NCBI GenBank assembly: GCA_965237985.1
Contig: OZ250161.1
Location: 1,771,913 to 1,835,912, forward strand
Length of the DNA stretch: 64,000 nucleotides
DNA from: Candidatus Oxydemutatoraceae bacterium
GTDB lineage: Bacteria; Pseudomonadota; Gammaproteobacteria; Poriferisulfidales; Oxydemutatoraceae
Direction: 5' to 3'
In this document: piece after piece, positions 1-19,900 of the stretch
How positions within the stretch are numbered: the stretch's first letter is position 1
Layout of the letters: each line of letters begins with the position of its first letter
Translations under genes and position numbers: made by a program
Notes under the pieces: generated by a model
The model's input: only the letters and a program-made list of their open reading frames with translations
What the model was told of the DNA's origin: nothing
Databases searched by the model: none

Positions 1-889
1 GGCGCAAGGGGAACCGCAGATGACTGTGTTGTTGGCGGAGAACGGGAGTTTGCCTGCTGATGATCCATATTGTGGGCGATACCCGGGAGCAGAAACAACG
101 ATACGCAGGAGCAAAGTGGGGGCAGAGTCGGGGAGAGGTGGCTGTGTGCCAATAAGCTTGGCAGCGGCACCGAACTTTACAGGGGTTGCAGATGGCAAGA
201 CAGTGGGCGTGGTGGATTGGATTTTGGTGGAGATAAGGGCTTCGGACGCGACTGAGGCAGAGGAGTTTGTAGGCGACACTGTGACGGTGCAAATACCGGC
301 ATTGTTGTTGAGCAACGGTCTCGTGGTTGATGCCGAGCGATTTGCCGGGAGTAGTTCCGTATTGAGCGATGCTGACAGAACTCTATGTGCCACCGTGGGG
401 AATGGATGCGATGCTGCAGATGTTGAAGTGCCGAGTGAGGCGTTCCCCGTTGCCGTTGGTACCAATGTTCGCGTGGTTATCAGACATAGAAACCATTTGG
501 ATGTCATGTCTGCGGTGCCTGTGGTTGAAACAGACGGTGTTCGCATGTTTGACTTCACAACGGTGACAAATGTTTACACGCCATTAGCTGACATACCTGC
601 TGTTTGGAGTTATAACAGTGAATTGAGAGGTGACTTGGAGAGAATTTTGTCCCCATACCCGGATTATGCATTCTTAGTCCCTGGTGATACGAATGGAAAT
701 GGAGTAGTGGAACCTGTTGATGTTACCGGCGCGACGGGTTTTACAGGTGCCTTTGTCAGTGGAGACACAACCGGGTACAACGATGCAGATACCAGCATGA
801 ACAATGTAGTGGCACCTGATGATGTGACGGAACGCGGCTTCACGACGGCATTCGTTTCGGGAGCAGCCAGTTCACTAGTTCCGAATTAA
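1..889 (+). CDS. 3' part of a secreted/surface protein gene (5' end outside the window) with dockerin/EF-hand-like Asp-Asn-Gly motifs
   Basis: The frame is open from position 2, with no stop before the first ATG at 20, and the stop is at 887-889. It contains VPGDTNGNGVVEPVDV (a dockerin-type Ca-binding-like loop) and DWILVEIR. No specific function can be assigned. Confidence 0.5.
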   Translation, partial: AQGEPQMTVLLAENGSLPADDPYCGRYPGAETTIRRSKVGAESGRGGCVPISLAAAPNFTGVADGKTVGVVDWILVEIRASDATEAEEFVGDTVTVQIPALLLSNGLVVDAERFAGSSSVLSDADRTLCATVGNGCDAADVEVPSEAFPVAVGTNVRVVIRHRNHLDVMSAVPVVETDGVRMFDFTTVTNVYTPLADIPAVWSYNSELRGDLERILSPYPDYAFLVPGDTNGNGVVEPVDVTGATGFTGAFVSGDTTGYNDADTSMNNVVAPDDVTERGFTTAFVSGAASSLVPN

Positions 890-973
890 TATCAGGTGCC
901 ATTCGCAGAAATTTTTGAATTGGGCAGAATTGACGGTTCTGCTTGTTTCTCTTAGTCAAGAGGGAGTATACAG

Positions 974-3900
974 ATGTTTTCATTGAACTTTAGTCCACAA
1001 GGTGAAGCAGCAAAGAAGTGTTTGACTAGAGGCGGTTTGCTCGTTTTGTTCTTGGCAATGGGAAATGCCGGTGCACAGGAGTTCGATTTTAACAGAGAAA
1101 ACTTTCTGGTGCCGCCTGTGCCGATAGTGGCAACGTGTTCGGACTGTGTGGGGGAGTTATTTCTCAGAATGAGCGAGCCTGAAATCGCCGATGGCAGAGC
1201 ATCAATCGGTGTTTTGCTGAGGGCCAGCCTTTCCAGTAGTTTTACGGCAACCCCCTACTTGGGCAACTACGTATTTCATGTTGCTGTTGGCGGTGTTGGT
1301 ATAGAACTTGTTAGAACGTCTTGCAATTTTACTGTGGCGAGTGGTGTGCAGAGCACTTACAACCCGGTTCCTTTGGCTGTGGGCTCAGCGAGTCCGCTGT
1401 CACTTACGGTGAACCAAGTGGCCCCGGGTTTCGGTTTGAGTTCACCGTCGACTGATACACACTACAGGCTGAGCACGGATGGGTTTAGCCAGTTCGGTAC
1501 ATTCAGTTGTCCGATCAGCGATACGAGTGGTGTAAATGCATACATTCTGGCTCCGGTTAACGTCTATGGATTTACTGTTCAGGTGGGGGTGGGTAACCAA
1601 CAGAAATTGTTGCTGAGGGCTGATAATTCGTACCGGTACTATCCTCTTGATGGTGACGCACCATTTGTAGCTGCAACAGGTGATCCTGTTGACTCCAGTA
1701 CCGTCACAGTGAGCCTAACGAGCAATTTGGTTGGTGTGCCGTCAACTGCAAGGAACTTTACCTTTAGCCCTGGGTGTGGCGTCGCTCCCGACAGTAGCGT
1801 CGCTCCCGTCGTTCCTGAAGTGCCAATTACCACCACTGTTACAGATATAAAAATATCTTTTGGAGAATCGCAGATATACAACGATTGTGTGGTGACTTAT
1901 GACGTGGTGGTTCCAGGTAATAGCTACAGCCTCACACAACGTCTGGGGGAAACGCCCATTCCGCCTGGTGGGGATGTTGTCAGCACAGTAGTGGTGTCCC
2001 TGAATGTTGGTTCTTCGAGTCCAATACAAGTTATTGACTTGGAAGACCCAAACTTGGTGTATTCGGCTTATGCCAATGTGAGGACAACCAGCGGTGATCC
2101 TCTACCCGTTTCTGCGGCGTATAGCCTGGATGGTGAAGAAATCGACAATGCTGATATTGGCGACGAAGTTACTGTTCAATTTTCCGATCGGAACAAGGAA
2201 ATTAATTTGAACATCGCCTTTAATGCAGCGAGAGAAGCGGCCATAAGAAGCATGAGTGGCGCCAACCCGGTGCAGATTCTGACGCTTGAAGTAAGGGTTG
2301 GTGACAGTGAACCATGGAGCAAATCATACTTGGTGGTTAGTAAAACTGAGGTTGCTGCTGCTATGAATCTCTACAGAAATTTCTTGGGTACTGTAATTAC
2401 CAGCACAGAAGGAATTGTCGGCGAAGAGGTAGATGCTGGATTCTTTCTGGCTCAGCTTCTTAGCACCGGTGCTGCTGTGATTGTAGATAAAGACGTCATT
2501 CAAAACGTATTGAATGCCGCGGTTGGAGGCCTGATAAATCTTCCGGACAGTGGGTTTAGTTCCAGTATACAGAATGAAGTTTTGACTGATGCGTACAGTT
2601 TTTCTGGATCACTTGATAATCTGGGTGTCACAGAGGCGAGTTTCGTCATTGATCTCGGTTCCAGTCAATTGACGTCGCCAGCGAGACTGGCTAAGCAAAT
2701 CAGAACTGGTGTCGAGCAGTGGAGGGGGGTTGATAACGGTTCTGGTGGCAGCGTAAGTTACTCGACTAATAGATACTTGCTACCACCGTCACCGTGTCTG
2801 CCTGCAAATGCTGAATCGGGCTGGCTTGATACAGATAATGGTTATGGACTGTTGCCAGCAAGCAGCACTACTCCTATCAGGTGCATCAGGATAACCATAG
2901 CTGATAATGGTGTTTATGATGTTGACGGTGCTGATCCTGAACTTTTTGGTTTTATTTCTGACTCGATTGTAGGGGTTGCAGACAGTCCTGACATTGTGCT
3001 TGCGCATGCACCACAGGGTTGCAGCTACGAGCCAGGTTATTTTCTTGCAGGTCCCGGTGACCCGATGCCGAATCGCTCAACTTGTGTGGGTTCAGTTACG
3101 GCGCAGATGAGGAACTTCAGAGCCACCGAAAGTACGGGAGATAGCAATGGTAGAGCCGTGGTGGACATTTGGCTCGAGACGGATTTACCTTCCACCCATA
3201 GTCGTTTCCTCGGTGGCTTTGAGTTTGACATTGCAGTTGATGGGGCCAAATATGGCGGAAGAGATGGTGGCGCTCCTACGGACAGCGGCATCGATTTAAG
3301 GGATAATGTTTGTGCTTTTTCCTATGCAGAGGGCGTGCTTGGCGGGTCAATAAATATAGATACGCGCACTTTTGAACCCGTCTTGTCCTTGGCAGTTTCT
3401 GCGGGCGCGCCTGAAGGTGGTAACCAAGTGGGTCTTATGACCAACTACGTCCTAAAAAGGGATTTCGAGCACTTTGGGACGTTCACCTGTCCAATTCTAG
3501 ATCGCTCCCTTGATAGGGGTTATGTTTTCGGTGCTAATAAAGTCTTTGAGTTTCGTGTGCATGATGAGAAGACCAACAGCTCTGGTGACTTTGACCCTCT
3601 GGTGCTGAGGGCTGATAATTCGTACCGGTACTATCCTCTTGATGGTGACGCACCATTTGTAGCTGCAACAGGTGATCCTGTTGACTCCAGTACCGTCACA
3701 GTGAGTCTAACGAGCAATTTGGTTGGTGTGCCGTCAACTGCAAGGAACTTTACCTTTAGCAGTGGTATCAATGGGTGTGGCGTCGCTCCCGTCGTTCCTG
3801 AAGTGCCAATTACCACCACTGTTACAGATATAAAAATATCTTTTGGAGAATCGCAGATAGACAACGATTGTGTGGTGACTTATGACGTGGTGGTTCCAGG

Positions 3901-6900
3901 TAATAGCTACAGCCTCACACAACGTCTGGGGGAAACGCCCATTCCGCCTGGTGGGGATGTTGTCAGCACAGTAGTGGTGTCCCTGAATGTTGGTTCGGAT
4001 CCAATACAAGTTATTGACTTGGAAGACCCAAACTTGGTGTATTCGGCTTATGCCAATGTGAGGACAACCAGCGGTGATCCTCTATCCGTTTCTGCGGCGT
4101 ATAGCCTGGATGGTGAAAAAATCGACAATGCTGATATTGGCGACGAAACTGTTCAATTTTCCGATCGGAACAAGGAAATTAATTTGAACCTCGCCTTTAA
4201 TGCAGCGAGAGAAGCGGCCATAAGAAGCATGAGTGGCGCCAACCCGGTGCAGATTCTGACGCTTGAAGTAAGGGTTGGTGACAGTGAACCATGGAGCAAA
4301 TCATACTTGGTGGTTAGTAAAACTGAGGTTGCTGCTGCTATGAATCTCTACAGAAATTTCTTGGGTACTGTAATTACCAGCACAGAAGGAATTGTCGGCG
4401 AAGAGGTAGATGCTGGATTCTTTCTGGCTCAGCTTCTTAGCACCGGTGCTGCTGTGATTGTAGATAAAGACGTCATTCAAAACGTATTGAATGCCGCGGT
4501 TGGAGGCCTGATAAATCTTCCGGACAGTGGGTTTAGTTCCAGTATACAGAATGAAGTTTTGACTGATGCGTACAGTTTTTCTGGATCACTTGATAATCTG
4601 GGTGTCACAGAGGCGAGTTTCGTCATTGATCTCGGTTCCAGTCAATTGACGTCGCCAGCGAGACTGGCTAAGCAAATCAGAACTGGTGTCGAGCAGTGGA
4701 GGGGGGTTGATAACGGTTCTGGTGGCAGCGTAAGTTACTCGACTAATAGATACTTGCTACCACCGTCACCGTGTCTGCCTGCAAATGCTGAATCGGGCTG
4801 GCTTGATACAGATAATGGTTATGGACTGTTGCCAGCAAGCAGCACTACTCCTATCAGGTGCATCAGGATAACCATAGCTGATAATGGTGTTTATGATGTT
4901 GACGGTGCTGATCCTGAACTTTTTGGTTTTATTTCTGACTCGATTGTAGGGGTTGCAGACAGTCCTGACATTGTGCTTGCGCATGCACCACAGGGTTGCA
5001 GCTACGAGCCAGGTTATTTTCTTGCAGGTCCCGGTGACCCGATGCCGAATCGCTCAACTTGTGTGGGTTCAGTTACGGCGCAGATGAGGAACTTCAGAGC
5101 CACCGATCAAAGTACGGAAGATAGCATGGGTAGAGCCGTGGTGGACATTTGGCTCAAGACGGATTTACCTTCCACCCATAGTCGTTTCCTCGGTGACTTT
5201 GAGTTTGACATTGCAGTTGATGGGGCCAAATATGGCGGAGGAGATGGTGGCGCTCCTACGGACAGCGGCATCGATTTAAGGGATAATAATGTTTGTGCTT
5301 TTTCCTATGCAGAGGGCGTGCTTGGCGGGTCAATAGATATAGCTACGCGCACTTTTGATCCCGTCTTGTCCTTGGCAGTTTCTGCGCGCGCGCCTGGAGA
5401 TGGTAACCGAGTGGGTCCTATGACCAACTACGTCCTAAAAAGGGATTTCGAGCGCTTTGGGACGTTCACCTGTCCAATTCTAGATCGCTCCCTTGATAGG
5501 GGTTATGTTTTCGGTGCTAATAAAGTCTTTGAGTTTCGTGTGCATGATGAGAAGACCAACAGCGTTGGTGACTTTGACCCTCTGGTGCTGAGGGCTGATA
5601 ATTCGTACCGGTACTATCCTCTTGATGGTGACGCACCATTTGTAGCTGCAACAGGTGATCCTGTTGACTCCAGTACCGTCACAGTGAGTCTAACGAGCAA
5701 TTTGGTTGGTGTGCCGTCAACTGCAAGGAACTTTACCTTTAGCCCTGGGTGTGGCGTCGCTCCCGACAGTAGCGTCGCTCCCGTCGTTCCTGATGTGCCA
5801 ATTACCCTCCTTGATACAGAAATACCTATAGTTTTTGCAAAATCGCAGATAGACAACGATTGTGTGGTGACTTATGACGTGGTGGTTCCAGGTAATAGCT
5901 ACAGCCTCACACAACGTCTGGGGGAAACGCCCATTCCGCCTGGTGGGGATGTTGTCAGCACAGTAGTGGTGTCCCTGAATGTTGGTTCGGATCCAATACA
6001 AGTTGTTGACTTGGAAGACCCAAACTTGGTGTATTCGGCTTATGCCAATGTGAGGACAACCAGCGGTGATCCTCTACCCGTTTCTGCGGCGTATAGCCTG
6101 GATGGTGAAGAAATCGACAATGCTGATATTGGCGACGAAGTTACTGTTCAATTTTCCGATCGGAACAAGGAAATTAATTTGAACATCGCCTTTAATGCAG
6201 CGAGAGAAGCGGCCATAAGAAGCATGAGTGGCGCCAACCCGGTGCAGATTCTGACGCTTGAAGTAAGGGTTGGTGACAGTGAACCATGGAGCAAATCATA
6301 CTTGGTGGTTAGTAAAACTGAGGTTGCTGCTGCTATGAATCTCTACAGAAATTTCTTGGGTACTGTAATTACCAGCACAGAAGGAATTGTCGGCGAAGAG
6401 GTAGATGCTGGATTCTTTCTGGCTCAGCTTCTTAGCACCGGTGCTGCTGTGATTGTAGATAAAGACGTCATTCAAAACGTATTGAATGCCGCGGTTGGAG
6501 GCCTGATAAATCTTCCGGACAGTGGGTTTAGTTCCAGTATACAGAATGAAGTTTTGACTGATGCGTACAGTTTTTCTGGATCACTTGATAATCTGGGTGT
6601 CACAGAGGCGAGTTTCGTCATTGATCTCGGTTCCAGTCAATTGACGTCGCCAGCGAGACTGGCTAAGCAAATCAGAACTGGTGTCGAGCAGTGGAGGGGG
6701 GTTGATAACGGTTCTGGTGGCAGCGTAAGTTACTCGACTAATAGATACTTGCTACCACCGTCACCGTGTCTGCCTGCAAATGCTGAATCGGGCTGGCTTG
6801 ATACAGATAATGGTTATGGACTGTTGCCAGCAAGCAGCACTACTCCTATCAGGTGCATCAGGATAACCATAGCTGATAATGGTGTTTATGATGTTGACGG

Positions 6901-9181
6901 TGCTGATCCTGAACTTTTTGGTTTTATTTCTGACTCGATTGTAGGGGTTGCAGACAGTCCTGACATTGTGCTTGCGCATGCACCACAGGGTTGCAGCTAC
7001 GAGCCAGGTTATTTTCTTGCAGGTCCCGGTGACCCGATGCCGAATCGCTCAACTTGTGTGGGTTCAGTTACGGCGCAGATGAGGAACTTCAGAGCCACCG
7101 ATCAAAGTACGGAAGATAGCATGGGTAGAGCCGTGGTGGACATTTGGCTCAAGACGGATTTACCTTCCACCCATAGTCGTTTCCTCGGTGACTTTGAGTT
7201 TGACATTGCAGTTGATGGGGCCAAATATGGCGGAGGAGATGGTGGCGCTCCTACGGACAGCGGCATCGATTTAAGGGATAATAATGTTTGTGCTTTTTCC
7301 TATGCAGAGGGCGTGCTTGGCGGGTCAATAGATATAGCTACGCGCACTTTTGATCCCGTCTTGTCCTTGGCAGTTTCTGCGCGCGCGCCTGGAGATGGTA
7401 ACCGAGTGGGTCCTATGACCAACTACGTCCTAAAAAGGGATTTCGAGCGCTTTGGGACGTTCACCTGTCCAATTCTAGATCGCTCCCTTGATAGGGGTTA
7501 TGTTTTCGGTGCTAATAAAGTCTTTGAGTTTCGTGTGCATGATGAGAAGACCAACAGCGTTGGTGACTTTGACCCTCTGGTGCTGAGGGCTGATAATTCG
7601 TACCGGTACTATCCTCTTGATGGTGACGCACCATTTGTAGCTGCAACAGGTGATCCTGTTGACTCCAGTACCGTCACAGTGAGTCTAACGAGCAATTTGG
7701 TTGGTGTGCCGTCAACTGCAAGGAACTTTACCTTTAGCCCTGGGTGTGGCGTCGCTCCCGACAGTAGCGTCGCTCCCGTCGTTCCTGATGTGCCAATTAC
7801 CACCACTGTTACAGATATAAAAATATCTTTTGGAGAATCGCAGATAGACAACGATTGTGTGGTGACTTATGACGTGGTGGTTCCAGGTAATAGCTACAGC
7901 CTCACACAACGTCTGGGGGAAACGCCCATTCCGCCTGGTGGGGATGTTGTCAGCACAGTAGTGGTGTCCCTGAATGTTGGTTCTTCGAGTCCAATACAAG
8001 TTATTGACTTGGAAGACCCAAACTTGGTGTATTCGGCTTATGCCAATGTGAGGACAACCAGCAGTGAGCGTCTATCCATTTTTGCGGCGTATAGCCTGGA
8101 TGGTGAAAAAATCGGCGGTGCTTCTCTCGGCGACGAAGTTACTGTTCAATTTTCCGATCAAAACAAGAAAATTGATTTGACCGAAGTCTTTATTGCAGCG
8201 AGAGAAGCGGCCATAAGAAGCATGAGTGGCGCCAACCCGGTGCAGATTCTGACGCTTGAAGTAAGGGTTGGTGACAGTGAACTATGGAGCAAATCATACT
8301 TGGTGGTTAGTAAAACTGCGGTTGCTTATGGCATGGCTGCCTACAGAGATCTCTTGAACACTGTAATTACCAGCACAGAAGGAATTGTCGGCGAAGAGGT
8401 AGATGCTGGATTCTTTCTGGCTGAACTTCTTAGTCGTAGCACCGGTGCTGCTGTGATTGTAGGTCAAGAGGTCATTCAAGGCGAATTGAATGACGCGGTT
8501 GGACGCCTGATAAATCTTCCGGAGAGTGGGTTTAGTAGTACGCAGAATAAAGTTTTGATAACTGATGCGTACACTTTTTCTGGATCACTTGATAATCTGG
8601 GTGTCACAGAGGCGAGTTTCGTCATTGATCTCGGAGACAGGCAATTGACGTCGCCAACGAGACTGGCTAAGCAAATCAGAACTGGTGGGGAGTACGAGCA
8701 GTGGAGAGGGGTTGATAACGGTTCTGGTGGCAGCGTAAGTTACTCGACTGTGGTCAACTTGCTAGGTGCTGGAGCGCAACCTCCCTGTCCCGAGGCTGCT
8801 GATGCTGTCGGCTGGATGAATACAGATAATGGAGTGTTACCGGCAGCTAGTCCTCTTGCTGATCAAATCAGGTGCATCAGGATAACCATAGCTGATGATG
8901 GTGTTTATGATGTTGACGGTGCTGATCTTGGACAACCTGGACTTTCTGGTTTTATTTCTGACCCGATTGCAGGGGTTGAAGACAGTCCTGACATTGTGCT
9001 TGCGCACGCTGGTGGCGGCGGTGGTAGCGATGGTTGGATTGTCGCACTCGCAGTTTTGGGAGGCTTGCTCTTTGCTGGCTCTGCTGGACTGTGGATGATC
9101 TTTGCTCTGCTTGCGATACTCGCCTTGTCCCTGTGGAGGAGGCGAAGCGAAGTTGTTGCTCATCATCGCAGTGAGTTCTAA
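974..9181 (+). CDS. Giant cell-surface repeat protein (2,735 aa) with an N-terminal signal peptide and a C-terminal Gly-rich/hydrophobic/Arg-rich sorting-signal-like tail
   Basis: Uninterrupted 8.2-kb ORF. An SD-like GAGGGAG (960-966) sits 7 nt upstream of ATG 974. The N-terminus KKCLTRGGLLVLFLAMGNAGA/QE looks like a Sec signal. It holds four roughly 660-aa near-identical units. The tail reads LAHAGGGGGSDGWIVALAVLGGLLFAGSAGLWMIFALLAILALSLWRRRS. A hairpin plus T-run terminator follows. Confidence 0.85.
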   Translation: MFSLNFSPQGEAAKKCLTRGGLLVLFLAMGNAGAQEFDFNRENFLVPPVPIVATCSDCVGELFLRMSEPEIADGRASIGVLLRASLSSSFTATPYLGNYVFHVAVGGVGIELVRTSCNFTVASGVQSTYNPVPLAVGSASPLSLTVNQVAPGFGLSSPSTDTHYRLSTDGFSQFGTFSCPISDTSGVNAYILAPVNVYGFTVQVGVGNQQKLLLRADNSYRYYPLDGDAPFVAATGDPVDSSTVTVSLTSNLVGVPSTARNFTFSPGCGVAPDSSVAPVVPEVPITTTVTDIKISFGESQIYNDCVVTYDVVVPGNSYSLTQRLGETPIPPGGDVVSTVVVSLNVGSSSPIQVIDLEDPNLVYSAYANVRTTSGDPLPVSAAYSLDGEEIDNADIGDEVTVQFSDRNKEINLNIAFNAAREAAIRSMSGANPVQILTLEVRVGDSEPWSKSYLVVSKTEVAAAMNLYRNFLGTVITSTEGIVGEEVDAGFFLAQLLSTGAAVIVDKDVIQNVLNAAVGGLINLPDSGFSSSIQNEVLTDAYSFSGSLDNLGVTEASFVIDLGSSQLTSPARLAKQIRTGVEQWRGVDNGSGGSVSYSTNRYLLPPSPCLPANAESGWLDTDNGYGLLPASSTTPIRCIRITIADNGVYDVDGADPELFGFISDSIVGVADSPDIVLAHAPQGCSYEPGYFLAGPGDPMPNRSTCVGSVTAQMRNFRATESTGDSNGRAVVDIWLETDLPSTHSRFLGGFEFDIAVDGAKYGGRDGGAPTDSGIDLRDNVCAFSYAEGVLGGSINIDTRTFEPVLSLAVSAGAPEGGNQVGLMTNYVLKRDFEHFGTFTCPILDRSLDRGYVFGANKVFEFRVHDEKTNSSGDFDPLVLRADNSYRYYPLDGDAPFVAATGDPVDSSTVTVSLTSNLVGVPSTARNFTFSSGINGCGVAPVVPEVPITTTVTDIKISFGESQIDNDCVVTYDVVVPGNSYSLTQRLGETPIPPGGDVVSTVVVSLNVGSDPIQVIDLEDPNLVYSAYANVRTTSGDPLSVSAAYSLDGEKIDNADIGDETVQFSDRNKEINLNLAFNAAREAAIRSMSGANPVQILTLEVRVGDSEPWSKSYLVVSKTEVAAAMNLYRNFLGTVITSTEGIVGEEVDAGFFLAQLLSTGAAVIVDKDVIQNVLNAAVGGLINLPDSGFSSSIQNEVLTDAYSFSGSLDNLGVTEASFVIDLGSSQLTSPARLAKQIRTGVEQWRGVDNGSGGSVSYSTNRYLLPPSPCLPANAESGWLDTDNGYGLLPASSTTPIRCIRITIADNGVYDVDGADPELFGFISDSIVGVADSPDIVLAHAPQGCSYEPGYFLAGPGDPMPNRSTCVGSVTAQMRNFRATDQSTEDSMGRAVVDIWLKTDLPSTHSRFLGDFEFDIAVDGAKYGGGDGGAPTDSGIDLRDNNVCAFSYAEGVLGGSIDIATRTFDPVLSLAVSARAPGDGNRVGPMTNYVLKRDFERFGTFTCPILDRSLDRGYVFGANKVFEFRVHDEKTNSVGDFDPLVLRADNSYRYYPLDGDAPFVAATGDPVDSSTVTVSLTSNLVGVPSTARNFTFSPGCGVAPDSSVAPVVPDVPITLLDTEIPIVFAKSQIDNDCVVTYDVVVPGNSYSLTQRLGETPIPPGGDVVSTVVVSLNVGSDPIQVVDLEDPNLVYSAYANVRTTSGDPLPVSAAYSLDGEEIDNADIGDEVTVQFSDRNKEINLNIAFNAAREAAIRSMSGANPVQILTLEVRVGDSEPWSKSYLVVSKTEVAAAMNLYRNFLGTVITSTEGIVGEEVDAGFFLAQLLSTGAAVIVDKDVIQNVLNAAVGGLINLPDSGFSSSIQNEVLTDAYSFSGSLDNLGVTEASFVIDLGSSQLTSPARLAKQIRTGVEQWRGVDNGSGGSVSYSTNRYLLPPSPCLPANAESGWLDTDNGYGLLPASSTTPIRCIRITIADNGVYDVDGADPELFGFISDSIVGVADSPDIVLAHAPQGCSYEPGYFLAGPGDPMPNRSTCVGSVTAQMRNFRATDQSTEDSMGRAVVDIWLKTDLPSTHSRFLGDFEFDIAVDGAKYGGGDGGAPTDSGIDLRDNNVCAFSYAEGVLGGSIDIATRTFDPVLSLAVSARAPGDGNRVGPMTNYVLKRDFERFGTFTCPILDRSLDRGYVFGANKVFEFRVHDEKTNSVGDFDPLVLRADNSYRYYPLDGDAPFVAATGDPVDSSTVTVSLTSNLVGVPSTARNFTFSPGCGVAPDSSVAPVVPDVPITTTVTDIKISFGESQIDNDCVVTYDVVVPGNSYSLTQRLGETPIPPGGDVVSTVVVSLNVGSSSPIQVIDLEDPNLVYSAYANVRTTSSERLSIFAAYSLDGEKIGGASLGDEVTVQFSDQNKKIDLTEVFIAAREAAIRSMSGANPVQILTLEVRVGDSELWSKSYLVVSKTAVAYGMAAYRDLLNTVITSTEGIVGEEVDAGFFLAELLSRSTGAAVIVGQEVIQGELNDAVGRLINLPESGFSSTQNKVLITDAYTFSGSLDNLGVTEASFVIDLGDRQLTSPTRLAKQIRTGGEYEQWRGVDNGSGGSVSYSTVVNLLGAGAQPPCPEAADAVGWMNTDNGVLPAASPLADQIRCIRITIADDGVYDVDGADLGQPGLSGFISDPIAGVEDSPDIVLAHAGGGGGSDGWIVALAVLGGLLFAGSAGLWMIFALLAILALSLWRRRSEVVAHHRSEF
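1611..9000 (+). repeat. Four in-frame tandem copies (about 1.99 kb each) inside the giant gene
   Basis: TGCTGAGGGCTGATAATTCGTACCGG recurs at 1611, 3603, 5586 and 7581. The periods are 1992, 1983 and 1995 nt, all multiples of 3. Antisense track ORFs 2789..3007, 4766..4984 and 6761..6979 translate identically (72 aa), so those 219-nt stretches are identical in three copies. The fourth copy diverges after about 8050. Confidence 0.95.
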
Positions 9182-9203
9182 GTAAACCAGCTTCATGAAT
9201 GAA

Positions 9204-9234
9204 AAGGCGGGCGCTTCGGTGCCCGCCTTTTTTT
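9204..9234 (+). terminator. Rho-independent terminator after the giant gene
   Basis: AAGGCGGGC-gcttcggt-GCCCGCCTT followed by a T-run, 23 nt after the stop. A second hairpin, ACGGCTGT-ttcaga-ACAGCCGT, lies at about 9241-9262. Confidence 0.8.
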
Positions 9235-10473: not shown

Positions 10474-11150
10474 AGGCCATGATTTTGGCGGCTGGACATG
10501 GCAAGCGCTTGCGTCCCTTGACTGAACATATCCCGAAGCCGCTTATTTCGGTGGGCGGCAAGATGCTGATTGACAGGCATTTATGTGGTCTTGCGCAGGC
10601 TGGATTCAGCAAGGTGGTAATCAATACTTCGTACATGGGCGATGTCATCAAAGAAAAAGTGGGTTTTGGAGATCGCTATGGAATACCCATTGTTTATTCG
10701 GAAGAAGGTGACAGCCGACTGAATACAGGTGGAGGCGTGAAAAATGCCTTGAAAATTTTGGGCACCCGCCCTTTTCTTCTGGTAAGTGCTGACGTGTTTA
10801 CGGATTGGAGTTTTTCACAGTTTTGTTTGCCGGAAGATGCTGCGGCGCACTTGTTGATGGTCAGGCGTAGTGGTGAACCACGGGAAAGCTACTTTTCATT
10901 GGATCATGGCGGAGTGTCCAGAATTTCAGCGCCAGAACTGGTCTATTCGGGGATCGGGTTTTTTTGGCCGAAAGTTTTTGCAGATATTGAGAAGCGTATT
11001 TTTTCATTGCGGGATGCCCTGGATGCTGCTGTCGTGAAAAACACCATAACCACGGATGTTTATGATGGTTGCATGGTAAATGTCGGCACTGCAGACGGTC
11101 TGAGGGACGCCAGAAGACGCTCGGTTTTTGGTGCACAAGAGCTGTCATGA
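10470..11150 (+). CDS. murU: N-acetylmuramate alpha-1-phosphate uridylyltransferase (MurU-like nucleotidyltransferase)
   Basis: The N-terminal MKAMILAAGHGKRLRPLTEHIPKPL matches the sugar-phosphate nucleotidyltransferase G-x-G-x-R-L-x-P-L-T signature. About 226 aa. Translationally coupled to amgK. Confidence 0.75.
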   Translation: MKAMILAAGHGKRLRPLTEHIPKPLISVGGKMLIDRHLCGLAQAGFSKVVINTSYMGDVIKEKVGFGDRYGIPIVYSEEGDSRLNTGGGVKNALKILGTRPFLLVSADVFTDWSFSQFCLPEDAAAHLLMVRRSGEPRESYFSLDHGGVSRISAPELVYSGIGFFWPKVFADIEKRIFSLRDALDAAVVKNTITTDVYDGCMVNVGTADGLRDARRRSVFGAQELS

Positions 11151-12115
11151 GGTTGTTGTTGTCTACTTTTACAAATAAATTGTCCAACAAAGGAGGAACT
11201 GTTCACTCTTAAAGAAAAGGGGTGGATATGCGATTCATGGATTTTTCTTTGTTTGGGCTTTTGGCTATGGTTTTCAGGAGAGTCGACCGCGGTTTCCCAT
11301 CGCCTGCGTAGCGCGTCAGGATCTCCTCGTTTCTCAGCATGGGAGAATTGTTTTCAACTGCCCGCATAACGGGGTTGTCCGAAGTCACCATCATGAAAAA
11401 AAATGGCTGGTCGTTATCGGTGACAGGCATTTCCCCACCGCTAATCCGGAAAATTAAGCTCCCTTTCTACCGTGACCAACCGGCCGCTTGCATGGGCTTA
11501 GGTCTTTTATGGAAGAAGCAGGGGGGGGTTCTGTGCATAAGAAAGTCAGACCGTCTACGCTAGATCGCTGACGGTGGCACAGTCAGGGCGGCAATGCGCC
11601 TGAATTTTGCGCCCCCGGCAAAGACCAGGATTTTTTGTTGCCATGGGGTCTGCCTGCGGCAGCACGAGGCGCCCCTTGTAGCGTCTCAGACTGTCTTGCA
11701 GAAAGCGACTGACAATGATTGTTTTCTCTTTGCCTGGCCTGCCTTTGGGCTGGCAATCCTTTGCTTATTTTTTTCTGAGTAGGTCTGGTGCCTGCCTGGG
11801 TGCGGCCATCATGCTATATGCCAGTGCTGTAGTCGTGGGCATGGAACCGAGATGTCATGAGCCTGAGCGAAGAGAGTGAAGACCTGTGCCTTGAGCCGTC
11901 CTAGCACCATGGAAGCAACCCGAAAGTGTGTGGCGGTCCAGGATGTGCAGCTTTGCTGCGCTTGCCAAGTTTGTCTCCGTGTTCTTGACTGGTTCTGCCG
12001 GACTTGCCGGACTTGCTGACGACACAGTCCCCACGAAGGACCTCGGGGCTGGCATTGTCAGGGAAGCTCAGCAGCATTGGCGTTCTCCAGCACCCTTTGT
12101 GTTGCTCGACTGATG

Positions 12116-13339
12116 TGTAGAAGTTTAGACCCAATCTGACACATCACTCAATCAAGCTGAGCGCAGCGAAGCTTGATTTAGTGAGAGTTACCCGTTTAGA
12201 TGTCATTGCAATATTAATATCCAAACAAAGAGGTAGCTCTCATGATCCATACTAACGATAAAGTCATTAAATATAAAGTCGGCCTACTCAATCTGGCTGA
12301 AGAACTCGGAAACGTCTCAAAAGCCTGCAAGATGATGGGCTTATCCAGAGATACTTTCTATCGATACAAAGCCGCTGCTGATGAAGGTGGCATTGAAGCA
12401 CTTTTTGATCAAAACAGGCGTATCGCGAACCTCAAAAATAGAGTTGATCCTGCGATTGAATCCATCGTCGTTGAACACGCTCTGGAAGAACCTGCCCATG
12501 GGCAGACCCGAACCAGCAATGAGCTACGCAAAATGGGGACATTTGTTTCGCCGACGGGCGTACGAAGTATTTGGTTACGCCATAACCTGGCTTGCCTTAA
12601 AGATCGACTCAAAGCACTATCCGATAAAGTGGCCACTGAAGGCCTGATTCTTACTGAGCCTCAAGTCGCTGCCATGGAACGCAAACAAGATGACGATCAG
12701 GCCTGTGGTGAGATAGAAACAGCCCACCCTGGCTATTTGGGCTCGCAAGACACTCACTATGTGGGTACATTCAAGGGTATTGGCCGAGTCTATCAGCAGA
12801 CGTTTATTGATACTTACAGTAAAGTCGCTCATGCCAAGCTCTACACCACCAAAACGCCGATTACCGCCGCTGATATGCTCAATGATCGTGTGTTGCCGTT
12901 CTATGAGGAACAAGCACTTCCCATGCTGCGGATTCTCACCGACCGTGGTACAGAATATTGTGGTCGAGCTGACCAACATGATTACCAGCTCTACCTGGCT
13001 TTGAATGATATTGAGCACACCAAAACCAAAGTCAGGTCACCGCAAACCAATGGCATTTGTGAACGCTTCCACAAGACCCTTCTCAATGAGTTTTACCAAG
13101 TGACCTTGCGTAAGAAAATCTATCAATCGATAGAAGAGTTACAAATTGATCTTGACAAATGGCTCATCAAATACAATACTCAACGAACTCACCAAGGCAA
13201 AATGTGCTGTGGGAGAACGCCGATGGAAACTCTCATCGACGGCAAATCGATCTGGAAGGAAAAGTTTTTGAACTAAACTTAACCTGACAGTCGGTTGCTG
13301 ATAAACGGGTAACTGTCAGATCAAGTCTAAACTTCTACA
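12116..13339 (+). mobile_element. Intact IS481-family insertion sequence (1,224 bp) with a 7-bp target-site duplication
   Basis: IRL TGTAGAAGTTTAGAC (12116-12130) is the exact reverse complement of IRR GTCTAAACTTCTACA (13325-13339). Similarity extends to about 26 bp with 3 mismatches. The direct repeat ACTGATG flanks both ends (12109-12115 and 13340-13346). It carries a single transposase ORF. Confidence 0.85.
12242..13276 (+). CDS. IS481-family DDE transposase (HTH plus rve integrase core)
   Basis: 344 aa. N-terminal HTH region LGNVSKACKMMGLSRDTFYRYK. C-terminal integrase-core signature KTKVRSPQTNGICERFHKTLLNEF. A single unframeshifted ORF between TGT...ACA inverted repeats. Confidence 0.9.
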   Translation: MIHTNDKVIKYKVGLLNLAEELGNVSKACKMMGLSRDTFYRYKAAADEGGIEALFDQNRRIANLKNRVDPAIESIVVEHALEEPAHGQTRTSNELRKMGTFVSPTGVRSIWLRHNLACLKDRLKALSDKVATEGLILTEPQVAAMERKQDDDQACGEIETAHPGYLGSQDTHYVGTFKGIGRVYQQTFIDTYSKVAHAKLYTTKTPITAADMLNDRVLPFYEEQALPMLRILTDRGTEYCGRADQHDYQLYLALNDIEHTKTKVRSPQTNGICERFHKTLLNEFYQVTLRKKIYQSIEELQIDLDKWLIKYNTQRTHQGKMCCGRTPMETLIDGKSIWKEKFLN

Positions 13340-13994
13340 ACTGATGAGACAAACTGCAGCATCTTGACGTGCAGCTGGCGACACTTTTGCCTGCCGCAGT
13401 TCAGCAACGTTCAGTCACTGTCGGCTCCCCACCGTCGAGATTGCCATTTGCTTTGCCTGGCAGGCTTTTTGCCGTGCTGGTCACACTTGTAGCTTTATGC
13501 CTGGGGAGTTCAAGTCTTGACATCAGGCCGGTCGCGCGTTTTTTTCGCGTTTTTTGTTTACCAAGGCCTTATCCGCCTTGCCAGCGCTACTTTGTAAAGC
13601 TACGCGCCTGCCGTTCGTTGAGATGCACATTGTGTTCCACCTCTGCCAGGGGGGGCAGATGTTCTTGGTGGATGGTCGCAATCCTCCGTAGCAGGTTTGT
13701 TCCCCGCCGCACAAGAGCAAGCTCTTGGATCTTGGTTGACTTTTGTGCCACTTGCTTTTTCTTGGCCAAAGCTTCCAGCGGGGAAGTCGTGTGATGAAAA
13801 AGAGAACACTCACTATCATGCGGGTTGTGCCTAGACATGGAGTCTACATGCAGCGGTGAAAAGTAAGCTAGACTCAAACGCCGTTTAAGCGCTGTGGCAA
13901 TTTCTGTTTTATGAATGCTTTGCAGGCTGCTTGAGCGTCGCGGTAGAGGTTCACCTCTGTCTGCGGAATTTGGCTGTTTTTGGAGCGGTGGAGA

Positions 13995-16900
13995 ATGTCC
14001 TCGATTAGAAAATTTTCATCTGTAAAGATGTTTTCAATCTGTGGGTTGCAGTTATTCTGCTCCGCGATTGCCCTGATGTGCTTTCCTCCGACCGTCTTCG
14101 GGCAAGATGTGGTTACGATCGTTACTGGGCTGGCAAGCGGTACGACATTATTCAATATCACAATGGACACTGGTGATATTCTGGGGACTGGTGCTGTGTC
14201 GGATTCCTTTATTCCCGTCGCGGTAACCAAGATTGTTCCGACTGTTGACTGTCCTACCGTTAGAGATGATTGTCTGCTGTTAAGTGATGATATTAGAAAA
14301 TTCTTTCCTGATAAGGGAAAAGATCTTAAGGAAACAAGGAACTTTCTGAATCAATTGAGCGTGCGGTCCGCTGATTATCTGCCTGTTACTGCAACGCTTG
14401 CTTTAACGGTCACCTATTATTCTAGACTTGAACGTGGTTTACCAGTGGAAATTACGGCTACCACCAGATTAAGTTTAGTTCTGGTGGAGGACCCGCCACC
14501 TGTGTTGAAGGATGAAAATGCCGTAAGCACCATTTTTGTTTCTAATTCGCCCTTCATGACCGCGGTTTTTGGAACAATAACCGTTAGGGATGTGCAATCT
14601 ACTGAATTTGTCGTTGAGGTAGTCAGTAGTATACGAATAACGCATATTTGTGGGGGTGGCAGTGTGGATGGCCGCACAGACTGCCTCCTTTTTGAATCTG
14701 AACCGACAATCGCGGAATTTTTAGGAGGTTCCAGTCAGCAGAGATCAGTTGCTCTTGCCCAGGGTTTTCTGCGCAGCATCCCGATGAAAATTTCCGGGGT
14801 CCCACCAATTCGGGCGACGGTGACGGTGTCACTGGAGTCGCGACTCAACGACAGTTCAATACCGCGGAAATCCACCCCGCTTACCTACGCCCTGGATTTT
14901 GATATCTCCGCTCTGGTGCCGCAGTTGAGTGATAAGTCCAATCTTAAAAAAGAGGGCTCCACAGGCGGCTTTATGCCTTTCAGTTCGCTGAGAGTTACGG
15001 ATGTTGGGGGCGAGGAGGAGGTTTTTACCAGCGTAAGGCTTACACAGGATTGTGGGGAGCTGGGAGAAAATTGCCTGCGGCTGAGTCCTCAACCGAGTAG
15101 CTTTGGAAGTTCTGTATTCGGCGATGACCCCCAAGATTTTTTGCGGAGCGTGATCGTGGTCCCGATAGGCGGCAGTTCCTTGTCTGCAACCGTAACTGTG
15201 ACGGTTAGTTCTATGTTACGTGGCTTAGCGCGAGTTTCCAATGAACTGGTTTACCGCCTGACTTTCGTCAGCAGGGCACCATTCCTGTCTGATAGTCCCA
15301 GCGAAAAAAGTGGCGATGTGTTGGGGTTCAGCCCATTCAGCTCCATCACTGTGACAGCAAGAGAAGCGGACACGATTACCAGTGTGGTGGTTGGGGCTTC
15401 CGGATGTTCCAGAGACCGTTCTACCTGCCTGGACATCATTGGCGTGGATCCGATAGCAGGAACAGCGATGCAGGTTCAGAGCTCCCTGCGGGATCTGGTG
15501 GTGAAATGGAGTGCGGACTATCGGGAGACGCGTGAGGCGACGGTGACGGTTTCCCTGGAAAGCAGTGTGAGGAACGCCTTTGGAGAGTTCGTGTCCCGGA
15601 AGTCAACCCCCCTGACGTATCGTCTGACTTTCACTGTTTCAGATCCACTGCCGCAGTTGAGTGATGATAAGTCCAATCTTAAAAAAGAGGGCTCCACAGG
15701 CGGCTTTATGCCTTTCAGTTCGCTGAGAGTTACGGATGTTAGGGGCGATGAGGAGGTTTTTACCAGCGTAAGGCTTATACAGGATTGTGGGGAGCTGGGA
15801 GAAAATTGTCTGCGGCTGAGTCCTCAACCGAGTAGCTTTGGAAGTCCTGTATTTGGCGATGACCCCCAAGATTTTTTGCGGAGCGTGATCGTGGGCACCA
15901 CAGACGGCCGTTCCTTGTCTGCAACCGTAACTGTGACGGTTAGTTCTATGTTACGTGGCTTAGCGCGAGTTTCCAATAAACTGGTTTACCGCCTGACTTT
16001 CGTCAGCAGGGCACCATTCCTGTCTGATAGTCCCAGCGAAAAAAGTGGCGATGTGTTGGGGTTCAGCCCATTCAGTTCCATCACTGTGACAGCAAGAGAA
16101 GCGGACACGATTACCAGTGTGGTGGTTGGGGCTTCCGGATGTTCCAGAGACCGTTCTACCTGCCTGGACATCATTGGCGTGGATCCGATAGCAGGAACAG
16201 CGATGCAGGTTCAGAGCTCCCTGCGGGATCTGGTGGTGAAATGGAGTGCGGACTATCGGGAGACGCGTGAGGCGACGGTGACGGTTTCCCTGGAAAGCAG
16301 TGTGAGGAACGCCTTTGGAGAGTTCGTGTCCCGGAAGTCAACCCCCCTGACGTATCGTCTGACTTTCACTGTTTCAGATCCACTGCCGCAGTTGAGTGAT
16401 GATAAGTCCAATCTTAAAAAAGAGGGCTCCACAGGCGGCTTTATGCCTTTCAGTTCGCTGAGAGTTACGGATGTTAGGGGCGATGAGGAGGTTTTTACCA
16501 GCGTAAGGCTTATACAGGATTGTGGGGAGCTGGGAGAAAATTGTCTGCGGCTGAGTCCTCAACCGAGTAGCTTTGGAAGTCCTGTATTTGGCGATGACCC
16601 CCAAGATTTTTTGCGGAGCGTGATCGTGGGCACCACAGACGGCCGTTCCTTGTCTGCAACCGTAACTGTGACGGTTAGTTCTATGTTACGTGGCTTAGCG
16701 CGAGTTTCCAATAAACTGGTTTACCGCCTGACTTTCGTCAGCAGGGCACCATTCCTGTCTGATAGTCCCAGCGAAAAAAGTGGCGATGTGTTGGGGTTCA
16801 GCCCATTCAGTTCCATCACTGTGACAGCAAGAGAAGCGGACACGATTACCAGTGTGGTGGTTGGGTCTTCCGGATGTTCCAGAGACCGTTCTACCTGCCT

Positions 16901-19900
16901 GGACATCATTGGCGTGGATCCGATAGCAGGAACAGCGATGCAGGTTCAGAGCTCCCTGCGGGATCTGGTGGTGAAATGGAGTGCGAACTATCGGAATCCG
17001 CGTGAGGCGACGGTGACGGTTTCCCTGGAAAGCAGTGTGAGGAACGCCTTTGGAGAGCTCGTGTCCCGGAAGTCAACCCCCCTGACGTATTGTCTGTCTT
17101 TCACTGTTTCAGATCCACTGCCGCAGTTGAGTGATGATAAGTCCAATCTTAAAAAAGAGGGCTCCACAGGCGGCTTTACGCCTTTCAGTTCGCTGAGAGT
17201 TACGGATGTTAGGGGCGATGAGGAGGTTTTTACCAGCGTAAGGCTTATACAGGATTGTGGGGAGCTGGGAGAAAATTGCCTGCGGCTGAGTCCTGAACCG
17301 AGTAGCTTTGGAAGTCCTGCATTTGGCGATGACCCCGACCCCCAAGATTTTTTGCGGAGCGTGATCGTGGTCCCGATAGGCGGCCGTTCCTTGTCTGCAA
17401 CCGTAACTGTGACGGTTAGTTCTATGTTACGTGGCTTAGCGCGAGTTTCCAATGAACTGGTTTACCGCCTGACTTTCGTCAGCAGGGCACCATTCCTGTC
17501 TGATAGTCCCAGCGAAAAAAGTGGCGATGTGTTGGGGTTCAGCCCATTCAGCTCCATCACTGTGACAGCAAGAGAAGCGGACACGATTACCAGTGTGGTG
17601 GTTGGGGCTTCCGGATGTTCCAGAGACCGTTCTACCTGCCTGGACATCATTGGCGTGGATCCGATAGCAGGAACAGCGATGCAGGTTCAGAGCTCCCTGC
17701 GGGATCTGGTGGTGAAATGGAGTGCGGACTATCGGGAGACGCGTGAGGCGACGGTGACGGTTTCCCTGGAAAGCAGTGTGAGGAACGCCTTTGGAGAGCT
17801 CTTGTCCCGGAAGTCAACCCCCCTGACGTATCGTCTGACTTTCACTGTTTCAGATCCACTGCCGCAGTTGAGTGATGATAAGTCCAATCTTAAAAAAGAG
17901 GGCTCCACAGGCGGCTTTATGCCTTTCAGTTCGCTGAGAGTTACGGATGTTGGGGGCGAGGAGGAGGTTTTTACCAGCGTAAGGCTTATACAGGATTGTG
18001 GGGATCTGGGAGAAAATTGCCTGCGGCTGAGTCCTGAACCGAGTAGCTTTGGAAGTCCTGCATTTGGCGATGACCCCGACCCCCAAGATTTTTTGCGGAG
18101 CATGACCGTGGGCACCACAGACGACCGTTCCTTGTCTGCAACCGTAACTGTGACGGTTAGTTCTATGTTACGTGGCTTAGCGCGAGTTTCCAATAAACTG
18201 GTTTACCGCCTGACTTTCGTCAGCAGGGCACCATTCCTGTCTGATAGTTCCAGCGAAAAAAGTGGCGATGTGTTGGGGTTCAGCCCATTCAGCTCCGTCA
18301 CTGTGACAGCAAGAGAAGCGGACACGATTACCAGTGTGGTGGTTGGGGCTTCCGGATGTTCCAGAGACCGTTCTACCTGCCTGGACATCATTGGCGTGGA
18401 TCCGATAGCAGGAACAGCGATGCAGGTTCAGAGCTCCCTGCGGGATCTGGTGGTGAAATGGAGTGCGAACTATCGGAATCCGCGTGAGGCGACGGTGACG
18501 GTTTCCCTGGAAAGCAGTGTGAGGACCGCCTTTGGAGAGCTCGTGTCCCGGAAGTCAACCCCCCTGACGTATCGTCTGACTTTCACTGTTTCAGACTTGC
18601 CGCCAATGTTGGATGATGCCTCAGGTCTTGATAAAACGGGTTTTGTCGGCGGCTTCGAGCCTTTCGCTGAAATAACATTAAGTGATGATGACAGCAGGGG
18701 AGGGACGGAGTCAATTACCGGCATTCGAATCGCCGTAGACTGCGTTGGCGGCGCTACGACCTGCACAGCTTATGTGGGCGACGGGCCGGGTGATTTCGCT
18801 GGAGGAACTCTTTCGGAAGCTCAGAACTTTCTGCGAAAACTACAGGTTCGTTCCCGGTTCGCGTCTTATTCGGCAAGGTTGTCTGTAACAGTCCGTACGG
18901 TGCTACGGGAACTGCCGCGTCAGTCTAATACGCTTGTTTATACTTTGACATTCCCCACACTTGGCCGTCTTCGTGATGACCGACCCAAGAGCAGGTTTGT
19001 CGTCCCGGAATTTGCTGTTGACCTGGGGGTTAACCCTTATGACTTGGATGAGGTGCGCAATGCAGTTAAAGAACATTGCGGTGGTGATTATTTCGAAGAT
19101 TCTGATGGTGATGGCGTGCCAAATAATGTTGAAGCACAGTTGGGCACAGACTGTCGGAATGACGATCCAGACAATGTAGCGGGTGGCGAGGAGAGACCTT
19201 TGGTGACTGTTGATACTTCCGAGGCTCAGATGTTGGACAAATTGCCCTTTACAGGCAGTCTGTCGGAACTTGAAATTCAATGCCGGGGTTGTGTGGAGAT
19301 TTTCTTCCTTGAAAAACAGGCTGTCTGCACTTCCGCATCGGCTGACTCCGTACTCGGGAACGGCAGCATTGCATTCCCGGGCGTAAACCAGTCATCTTGT
19401 TACCAGGCGGGCTATTACTCAAGCTCTGCAACTGCTGCTCCTTCCCCCTTGACAGGAACGATTTTCCCTGTGCCAACCTGGTCGGAGCTATATGTGTTGG
19501 GCATAGACAAGTATGGGAACTGGTCTGTCAGCAATAGTGGGGCACTGGATACGAAGGTGGTGTACACGTTAGCCGTTTTGAGTCTCGGTCCGGATCTATA
19601 TGCCCTTGGGGATATGGCAAACGTCACGGTGGAATTTCGCGGGCGATGGACTCAGGCATCTCCGGACTTGTCGCTTCCTGCGGTTGCCCTGGCTTTTACT
19701 CTTGACGTCAACGGCACGAAATTCCCGGGATCATTTCCCAATCCCGTGCACAGGGGTACGATGACCATTCCTGTTGATGTGTCCGATATTGATGCAGGAA
19801 GCATGCTGATTGTGAGCCTGGATGACTCCAATTTTTTTGCCGTGGGAAGAAGTGTTCTTACTATCCTAAAAGGAGAAGCGCCGCCATTCATAACGATTGG

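Follow-up and report, generated by a model that had tools for sequence, protein, structure and literature searches.

Two very large proteins encoded by an uncultured bacterium share a similar C-terminal ending, and the question raised by their locus is whether this ending is a dedicated signal for sorting or simply a membrane anchor. The locus lies within a stretch of 64,000 nucleotides of contig OZ250161.1 (positions 1,771,913 to 1,835,912) of a Candidatus Oxydemutatoraceae bacterium, the whole of which was analyzed and is referred to here as the window. Two very long intact reading frames are present on its + strand, giant 1 (974–9181, 2735 amino acids) and giant 2 (13980–21017, 2345 amino acids). 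As judged from alignments and codon comparisons, the tail of these proteins appears to be a family-specific C-terminal anchor that is under selection, that resembles a sorting signal, that follows a choice-of-anchor–like domain, and that may be subject to processing.

Anatomy and conservation of the C-terminal tail

A BLASTP comparison of the last 249 residues of giants 1 and 2 revealed 83 identities over 200 positions (42%, E = 1e-41). An earlier reading of the DNA made without database searches (the sequence-only reading) had described the two ends as collinear, and the translations of 8558–9181 and 20430–21017 match that description. Given that a full-length comparison detected similarity between the giants only in the C-terminal module, they are otherwise unrelated, as had also been claimed. 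In both tails, LAHA is followed by a Gly-run, by W and 13 hydrophobic residues, by G-S-x-G-x-W, by 13 or 14 hydrophobic residues, and by RRR, after which 10 or 11 residues remain. The presence of two hydrophobic segments, with an Arg cluster after only the second, was likewise confirmed for both giants, which are the only carriers of such a tail among all reading frames of the window. Comparison of the two segments in register yielded only 1 or 2 identities at 13 positions, nothing beyond composition, and the notion that the first segment arose by tandem duplication of the second was set aside on this basis as unsupported. The word “doubled” therefore refers to the architecture of the tail, a duplication not having been demonstrated.

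The tail recurs, in four forms (one of them degenerate, as described below), on at least 20 further genes of related genomes (relatives are designated here by P numbers for proteins and L numbers for loci). A single tail, LAHASAGGGGG-SAGAWTIMALLTVLGLSMLRRRRVTVRSEL, is present in P0007, P0009, P0011, and P0014 as well as in genes of L003, L004, and L006, whereas a tail with a vestigial insert (...GGGNGFLGI-GSAGAW...) is found in P0008, P0010, P0012, P0016, and one gene of L006. The full-insert, or doubled, tail is common to giant 1, P0002, giant 2, P0004, P0005, L001, and a 1919–amino acid protein of L007, as well as to P0013, which has a different insert. Given that single, vestigial, and full-insert forms coexist among paralogues, the conserved unit consists of G-S-x-G-x-W followed by the helix and RRR(R). 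The first hydrophobic segment constitutes an optional insert: the giants of the window, the majority of giant 2–type relatives, and the small paralogue P0013 carry it, but many small paralogues lack it or retain only a vestige. Its length is fixed, with a distance between the two W residues of exactly 19 residues in giants 1 and 2 and of 19 in P0004, L001, and the L007 protein; P0005, which has a WW pair, shows this spacing when the first of these two Trp residues is taken as the starting point. The sequence-only reading had proposed that the two genes may define a cargo family with a duplicated, longer-than-usual signal; the specificity of the tail for a family stands, but doubling is not a defining feature, given the many tails that are single or contain NGFLGI.

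Alignment of the tails revealed no variation at G, S, G, one Ala, one Leu, and one Arg, and almost none at the Trp. The Gly-run differs in length among paralogues and strains, being longer in P0002 than in giant 1, and Cys is absent between LAHA and the Arg cluster in every tail. Across the family, 7 to 11 residues follow the Arg cluster (for example, SEVVAHHRSEF, CVPRVQTRLK, and VTVRSEL). The core helix is composed of 39% Leu, 12% Ala, 7% Val, and 7% Ile.

For giant 1 versus the small paralogues, the proportion of synonymous differences (pS) in the tail core was 0.59–0.77, and so saturated, and the proportion of nonsynonymous differences (pN) was 0.14–0.23, with the pN of the module being higher, at 0.28–0.40. 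The same pattern, with a lower pN in the tail core than in the module, was apparent for giant 2 versus P0004, and pS for the tail core was 0.6–0.9 over the comparisons made. The amino acid sequence of the tail core is 65–74% identical between giant 1 and the small paralogues, exceeding the identity of the module. Saturated pS together with low pN indicates that the tail peptide is under purifying selection, stronger than that on the preceding folded domain; selection thus appears, from these codon comparisons, to act on the tail peptide itself and not merely on its hydrophobicity. An ordinary anchor without family-specific conservation had been named beforehand as the alternative, and the recurrence of the tail on other genes, its invariant G-S-x-G, Ala, Leu, and Arg residues, and its pN below that of the module show that it is not generic.

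Conservation extends beyond the protein. DNA-level conservation among the small paralogues runs from the tail through the stop codon and a rho-independent terminator (GAAAGGCGGGTGCTTCGGTACCCGCCTTTTTTT) and into ~150 nucleotides downstream. Within the window, a hairpin of the GAAAGGCGGGTGCTTCGGTACCCGCCTTTTTTT type occurs only at 9201–9232, and giant 2 and its orthologues are without it. The sharing of the terminator and downstream DNA by giant 1–type genes of several genomes suggests that duplication or gene conversion has disseminated the 3′ end as a DNA cassette. Near-identical terminators are located in L003 (5808–5831), L004 (1401–1424), L005 (6078–6101 and 7989–8012), and L006 (11863–11886, 14625–14648, and 17357–17380).

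Repeat architecture, fold, and genomic setting of the family

The ~150-residue module in front of the tail is not specific to the C-terminus but is an ordinary repeat domain. Giant 1 contains four copies, of which the three internal ones lack a tail, with the next repeat (LAHAPQGCSYEPGY...) following immediately on their terminal LAHA. The protein as a whole is made up of four in-frame, head-to-tail copies of a ~660-residue unit, with LAHA at residues 676, 1335, 2000, and 2676. Its first unit is collinear, from the N-terminal signal peptide through the module, with the complete 613-residue protein P0008 of a relative, and its internal units begin at a position homologous to the mature N-terminus; whole genes, encoding ~600 residues in relatives, have therefore been fused in frame. 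In this four-unit fusion the signal peptide is present solely at the N-terminus and the tail solely at the extreme C-terminus, as is expected for a position-dependent signal. The database variant of giant 1, P0002, comprises 2116 residues with three module matches and fewer units, indicating that unit copy number varies between strains. Giant 2 contains approximately six tandem repeats of ~245 residues (residues ~231–1660), with its relatives (970–1919 residues) having fewer repeats, and a weak match to the bacterial TSP3 (calcium-binding) repeat was observed near residue 1707. Tandem Repeats Finder gave no output for the repeats, periods of >500 nucleotides lying beyond its detection.

To model the cassette, AlphaFold2 was supplied with a 16-sequence family alignment for a query comprising the last 250 residues, an earlier model from three sequences having been poor (predicted local distance difference test score, or pLDDT, of 48). 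The resulting model (mean pLDDT of 74.7) predicted a beta-sandwich at residues ~51–184, a disordered Gly-run, and two helices, at 202–215 and 219–247, that are separated by a break at G-S-A. A Foldseek search of the predicted fold against the PDB yielded no match below E = 1e-3, the best (E = 5.6e-3) being to vague shapes of the jelly-roll or carbohydrate-binding module type with low TM-scores, and a family profile matched no PDB sequence. For both giants and eight relatives, no Pfam match attained its gathering score by virtue of one significant stretch alone; the PH_23 match of giant 2 (28.0 bits versus 27) was discounted because its score only sums fragments. An Rfam scan of the window yielded nothing.

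An exhaustive HMMER profile search of 1.84 billion representatives retrieved no more than 18 proteins, with E ≤ 1e-10 for 15, and further family members were read in fetched related loci. All traceable contigs of the relatives belong to two ENA metagenome assemblies, ERZ25069837 and ERZ25071281, with four of the 18 relatives being on contigs that NCBI also holds or whose sample is unknown; a literature search for the two accessions yielded nothing. A word-index protein search with the last 249 residues of giant 2 returned one fragment, P0001; this search missed proteins found by the exhaustive one, and its index therefore covers the clade poorly. P0001 derives from the low-coverage contig L001, which has the same gene order, with murU upstream, and whose last frame reads GDWLIILAAFAGLLFAGSVGVWMLLALALLVVF, so that the doubled tail is conserved in this orthologue. 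P0003 is giant 2 itself, on a contig of 2,000,500 base pairs, and P0004 is its orthologue on ctg28099_58x_c of ERZ25069837, a circular contig of 1,918,571 base pairs. The window and the P0004 contig share the gene order amgK-murU, family genes, and dat-dacA-rlpA-mltB-rodA-mrdA-ppa, and in other genomes the family takes the form of tandem clusters of small genes (encoding 300–660 residues) that adjoin amgK-murU. Signal-peptide–like N-termini are present in all full-length members, including both giants, for which they were read by eye from the translations. Nothing related was detected in the GTDB species-representative genomes, or in JGI metagenomes scanned with module patterns and with the terminator cassette. 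Exact-match look-ups of proteins encoded in the window likewise gave no hit. The sole match in a genome collection (L002, Polaromonas), which falls in an alternative reading frame of a gene for a histidine kinase, was dismissed as chance. The protein family is lineage-restricted, being confined to a few uncultured bacteria with genomes of ~2 megabases.

Several neighboring genes were also noted. Upstream of giant 1 is a tail-less frame of 289 residues (20–889) with no family match and no membrane helix, the start of which is possibly cut by the window edge; in L003, L005, and L006, homologues of it (54–62% identical) immediately precede family genes, marking it as a conserved partner gene. A transposase-like frame of 344 residues (12242–13276), a candidate of the integrase-core type by sequence, lies between murU and giant 2, with flanks (11150–12240 and 13280–13980) that contain no convincing genes, and a second family gene occupies its place in the orthologous locus L004. 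In L006, a protein of >2100 residues (1–6346) encoded directly upstream of the family cluster shows SpvB, TcdB-mid, FG-GAP, and RHS/YD-shell matches (insecticidal toxin-complex type). Elsewhere in the window, no reading frame longer than ~115 residues is present at 34700–36290, 37650–38850, 48700–50700, or 57400–59580, and two adjacent small frames (40001–40234 and 40242–40574) have identical C-terminal halves. The gene-poor stretches, twin small frames, insertion sequence, and genome size of ~2 megabases hint at gene decay typical of host-associated bacteria. A frame of 328 residues (36657–37643) in an otherwise gene-poor stretch contains a GLUG motif (PF07581, E = 1.4e-12), which is known from large surface and adhesin proteins.

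Table 1 Positions of features of the giant 1 and giant 2 genes in the window
Feature	Position	Strand	Basis or remark
Giant 1 predicted Sec signal peptide, residues 1–34 (...GNAGA|QEF)	974–1075	+	Basic n-region, hydrophobic core, and AGA-Q in translation; predicted cleavage site
Giant 1 internal module copy 1, residues 507–682, ends LAHA, without tail	2492–3019	+	BLASTP versus giant 2 module, 45%, E = 4e-30
Giant 1 internal module copy 2, residues 1166–1341, without tail	4469–4996	+	Full-length BLASTP comparison
Giant 1 internal module copy 3, residues 1831–2006, without tail	6464–6991	+	Full-length BLASTP comparison
Giant 1 terminal module, residues 2514–2679, beta-sandwich, two invariant Cys, ends ...ISDPIAGVEDSPDIVLAHA	8513–9010	+	BLASTP, alignment, AlphaFold2
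Giant 1 Gly-run GGGGGSDG, flexible linker or motif	9011–9034	+	Translation, tail alignment; pLDDT <50
Giant 1 first hydrophobic segment WIVALAVLGGLLFA, optional insert	9035–9076	+	Predicted helix 202–215
Giant 1 GSAG motif; G, S, and last G invariant in family	9077–9088	+	Tail alignment
Giant 1 second hydrophobic segment LWMIFALLAILALSLW, conserved Leu-rich, putative membrane-spanning core	9089–9136	+	Selection, alignment, composition; predicted helix, pLDDT ~84
Giant 1 RRR basic cluster	9137–9145	+	Translation, tail alignment
Giant 1 C-terminal extension SEVVAHHRSEF and stop codon	9146–9181	+	Related ends ...V(A/T)VRSEL in small paralogues
Rho-independent terminator hairpin 3′ of giant 1	9201–9232	+	Near-identical bases after small paralogues of other genomes
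Giant 2 predicted signal peptide (...PPTVFG|QDV)	13980–14102	+	Translation; predicted cleavage site; database copy P0003 begins at ATG 13995
Giant 2 terminal module, residues 2140–2289, ends ...SQLAHA	20397–20846	+	BLASTP; weak choice_anch_U match over last ~45 residues
Giant 2 Gly-run GVGGGGDDIT	20847–20876	+	Translation
Giant 2 first hydrophobic segment WVIVLAALSGFLYG	20877–20918	+	Kept in P0004, P0005, L001, and L007 1919-residue protein
Giant 2 GSSG motif	20919–20930	+	Tail alignment
Giant 2 second hydrophobic segment VWMLLALVLVLALSL	20931–20975	+	Translation, tail alignment
Giant 2 RRR basic cluster	20976–20984	+	Translation
Giant 2 C-terminal extension CVPRVQTRLK and stop codon	20985–21017	+	Not conserved with giant 1 type

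A proposed role for the tail and its alternatives

The shared ~190 residues at the C-terminus constitute a constant “anchor cassette” of secreted, and probably surface, proteins. The cassette consists of the ~150-residue beta-sandwich domain, with a conserved Cys pair and the ending ISDPxxGV...LAHA; a flexible Gly-run; and G-S-x-G-x-W followed by a Leu/Ala-rich membrane helix of 13–15 residues, RRR(R), and 7–11 further residues. The N-terminal signal peptide would direct export by the Sec pathway, and the last helix and Arg cluster would stop transfer, with the protein thereby being held in the inner membrane, its passenger facing outward and the Arg cluster inward. A dedicated membrane enzyme may then recognize the Gly/GSxG motif and helix and release or re-anchor the passenger, the nearest analogy being the action of rhombosortase on GlyGly-CTERM. 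The first hydrophobic segment is not a second signal but a 13-residue insert of fixed length that is too short to span the membrane alone; its most likely effect is to extend the membrane helix, or to bend it, at the periplasmic face. From the anatomy, family, conservation, and strictly C-terminal position of the tail, we infer its topology, any cleavage, and the enzyme. The proposal that the tail is a processed sorting signal, with a rhombosortase-like enzyme as its most likely partner, is one whose chances we hold to be evenly balanced.

Several observations weigh against a processed signal. No sortase-like gene, including one for a rhombosortase (TIGR03902 type), was found in the window or in ~100 kilobases of related loci, in which the multi-pass membrane proteins are RodA and, in the window, one transporter; given that sorting enzymes are often encoded away from their cargo genes, the absence of such a gene from these loci does not settle the matter. 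Every tail found is accompanied by the same upstream module, with no unrelated passengers sharing the tail alone, and the carriers therefore make up one paralogous family rather than a set of unrelated cargo proteins linked by their signal alone. True sorting-signal cargo sets are usually related in the tail only. A tail-only profile search, in which none of 8000 low-complexity candidates scored, is not evidence of absence. The conservation of the tail, stop codon, and terminator as DNA implies that part of the similarity derives from recent duplication or gene conversion. A giant 2–type paralogue of 970 residues in L004 (6607–9519), with a shortened first hydrophobic segment, has a degenerate tail in which VSAEVW replaces GSxGxW, and it may represent either a copy undergoing decay or an exception that still functions. 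In addition, the GlyGly-CTERM signal has 0–5 residues after its basic cluster (PMC3237569), compared with the 7–11 residues observed here.

The earlier suggestion of a GlyGly-CTERM–like or PEP-CTERM–like signal was also not borne out by the curated models, none of which accepts the tails of the giants. GlyGly_CTERM (TIGR03501) scored 7.4–9.5 bits whether the target was one of these tails, a single-type tail, or a whole small protein, compared with a cut-off of 15.5 bits; MYXO-CTERM (TIGR03901 or TIGR03382) scored 13–16 bits on the giants’ tails, compared with a cut-off of 20; and the best score for PEP-CTERM (TIGR02595) was 13.2 bits, with a cut-off of 16 and no Pro-Glu-Pro motif in the tails. 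Isolated single-type tails scored 19.9 and 22.5 bits with MYXO-CTERM, close to its cut-off, and thus have the shape of known sorting domains, although a third such tail scored 11.3 bits. The same tails within whole proteins scored 13.9–16.8 bits, so that no model accepts a tail in its protein context and only one isolated peptide passes. These tests thus do not support membership of the tail in any known CTERM family.

The simplest alternative is a plain, uncleaved stop-transfer anchor in the inner membrane, the conservation of which would reflect descent and gene conversion of the 3′ cassette without recognition by an enzyme. Such an anchor would account for the lack of a sorting enzyme in any locus examined, for the sub–cut-off scores of all CTERM models on the giants, for the conservation as DNA of the tail, terminator, and ~150 downstream nucleotides among the small paralogues, and for the constant presence of the module next to the tail. 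It would not explain why the tail core has remained more similar than the module between giant 1 and the small paralogues despite the saturation of pS, nor why G-S-x-G is invariant and the Trp nearly so, features that exceed the needs of a simple anchor; and repetitive, adhesin-like proteins of 2300–2700 residues locked in the periplasm would be unusual. We consider this explanation unlikely, if a real contender. A narrower version of the processed-signal proposal, counted within it as a special case, is that the tail is a divergent but true GlyGly-CTERM, with a canonical rhombosortase encoded elsewhere and delivery to the surface by type II secretion. The Cys-free Gly-rich motif, aromatic column, Leu-skewed helix, basic cluster, and signal peptide match the definition of that signal (PMC3237569, PMC13393428), and TIGR03501 misses divergent sets, its authors having needed species-specific models (PMC3237569). 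The TIGR03501 scores below the cut-off, the extension after the Arg cluster that is longer than described, and the extra hydrophobic segment before the motif in the giants nevertheless render this version rather doubtful.

Two further schemes give the first hydrophobic segment a larger part. In a helical hairpin or re-entrant loop, GSxG would form the turn and the Arg cluster would be positioned on the passenger side. The break in the AlphaFold2 helix exactly at G-S-A and the fixed W-to-W spacing of 19 residues are compatible with a hairpin, but its arms of 13–16 hydrophobic residues are too short for the bilayer, and a periplasmic Arg cluster would break the positive-inside rule. Moreover, the single-segment paralogues keep GSxG-W-helix-RRR, so that the second helix must be capable of functioning by itself in an orientation that places the passenger outside and the C-terminus inside, and we regard a hairpin as very improbable. 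It is also improbable, though slightly less so, that the two-helix form is a distinct sorting signal, in which the enzyme would cut the buried GSxG and the first helix would stay on the giant as a peptide membrane anchor, or in which the choice between cutting at the Gly-run and at GSxG would decide between release and retention. If so, the single-tail paralogues would instead be released or lipid-anchored, and the two-helix tail would represent a new mode of C-terminal anchoring in a family without known relatives.

C-terminal sorting signals are the means by which many bacteria fix proteins to their surface, and each new class of signal has led to a new enzyme: sortase, exosortase, rhombosortase, and myxosortase. 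The present tail has the right architecture and conservation at the peptide level, yet falls outside all curated models. It marks a family without a Pfam or NCBIfam domain and without a solved structural relative, encoded by a variable gene cluster in which whole genes have been fused into giants. If an enzyme partner exists, the tail provides a handle for finding it by phylogenetic profiling, and the optional helix is a natural experiment on the hydrophobic sequence tolerated before the motif. If no partner exists, the tail would be the conserved membrane anchor of a lineage-specific adhesin family, of modest interest.

Comparison with known sorting signals and adhesins

With regard to architecture, the closest system appears to be GlyGly-CTERM with its rhombosortase (RrtA/RssP). 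This signal is described (PMC13393428; PMC6219818) as a Gly-rich motif, a single helix, and a positive tail, in proteins with an unstructured linker and a signal peptide; cleavage occurs after the di-glycine, with possible addition of glycerophosphoethanolamine, and the proteins reach the surface via the type II secretion system. The two signals have in common the C-terminal position, a tripartite arrangement in which a Cys-free Gly/Ser-rich motif is followed by a short Leu-rich helix that opens with an aromatic residue and then by an Arg cluster, together with a flexible linker in front and an N-terminal signal peptide (PMC3237569, PMC13393428). The helices of GlyGly-CTERM are skewed in favor of Leu and against both Val and Ile, which Haft and Varghese took as an argument for specific recognition (PMC3237569), and the core helix of the present tail, being Leu-rich and Val/Ile-poor, shows the same skew. 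The motif is GG in the former, however, whereas it consists of a Gly-run and the invariant G-S-x-G-x-W in the latter. GlyGly-CTERM proteins have no extra helix before the signal, and neither do the single-tail relatives, whereas the giants and several relatives have an additional 13-residue hydrophobic helix between the Gly-run and the GSxG motif. Finally, GlyGly-CTERM cargo sets comprise several proteins of one genome that are usually homologous in the tail only, whereas all carriers described here share the upstream module.

MYXO-CTERM with myxosortase resembles the present tail in its Gly-rich lead-in, helix, and RRR, and it is the best-scoring curated model for the single-type tails. Its hallmark is an invariant Cys (PMC11980579), which is absent from every tail here. 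The gene neighborhood (amgK-murU, mrdAB) looks proteobacterial rather than myxobacterial.

The choice-of-anchor U domain is similar to the last strands of the module, (I/V)RC(I/V)R(I/L)TIVDGGxYDxDG, and is likewise positioned directly before a C-terminal anchor. The choice_anch_U model (NF041766) matched 6 of 16 family members at E < 1 (best E = 1.3e-4), with at most 19.9 bits compared with a cut-off of 32 and over positions 49–88 of 92. The choice-of-anchor element that the sequence-only reading had placed before the tail is thus supported by weak matches that are both partial and below threshold. The module also differs in its size of ~150 residues, its conserved Cys pair, and its lack of a solved relative.

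Giant adhesins of the RTX/LapA type in Gram-negative bacteria are also very large, with long, near-identical tandem repeats whose copy number varies between strains. Such adhesins are exported by type I secretion without a Sec signal peptide and possess a C-terminal secretion signal and an N-terminal retention module, whereas the present proteins combine a Sec signal peptide with a membrane helix at the C-terminus.

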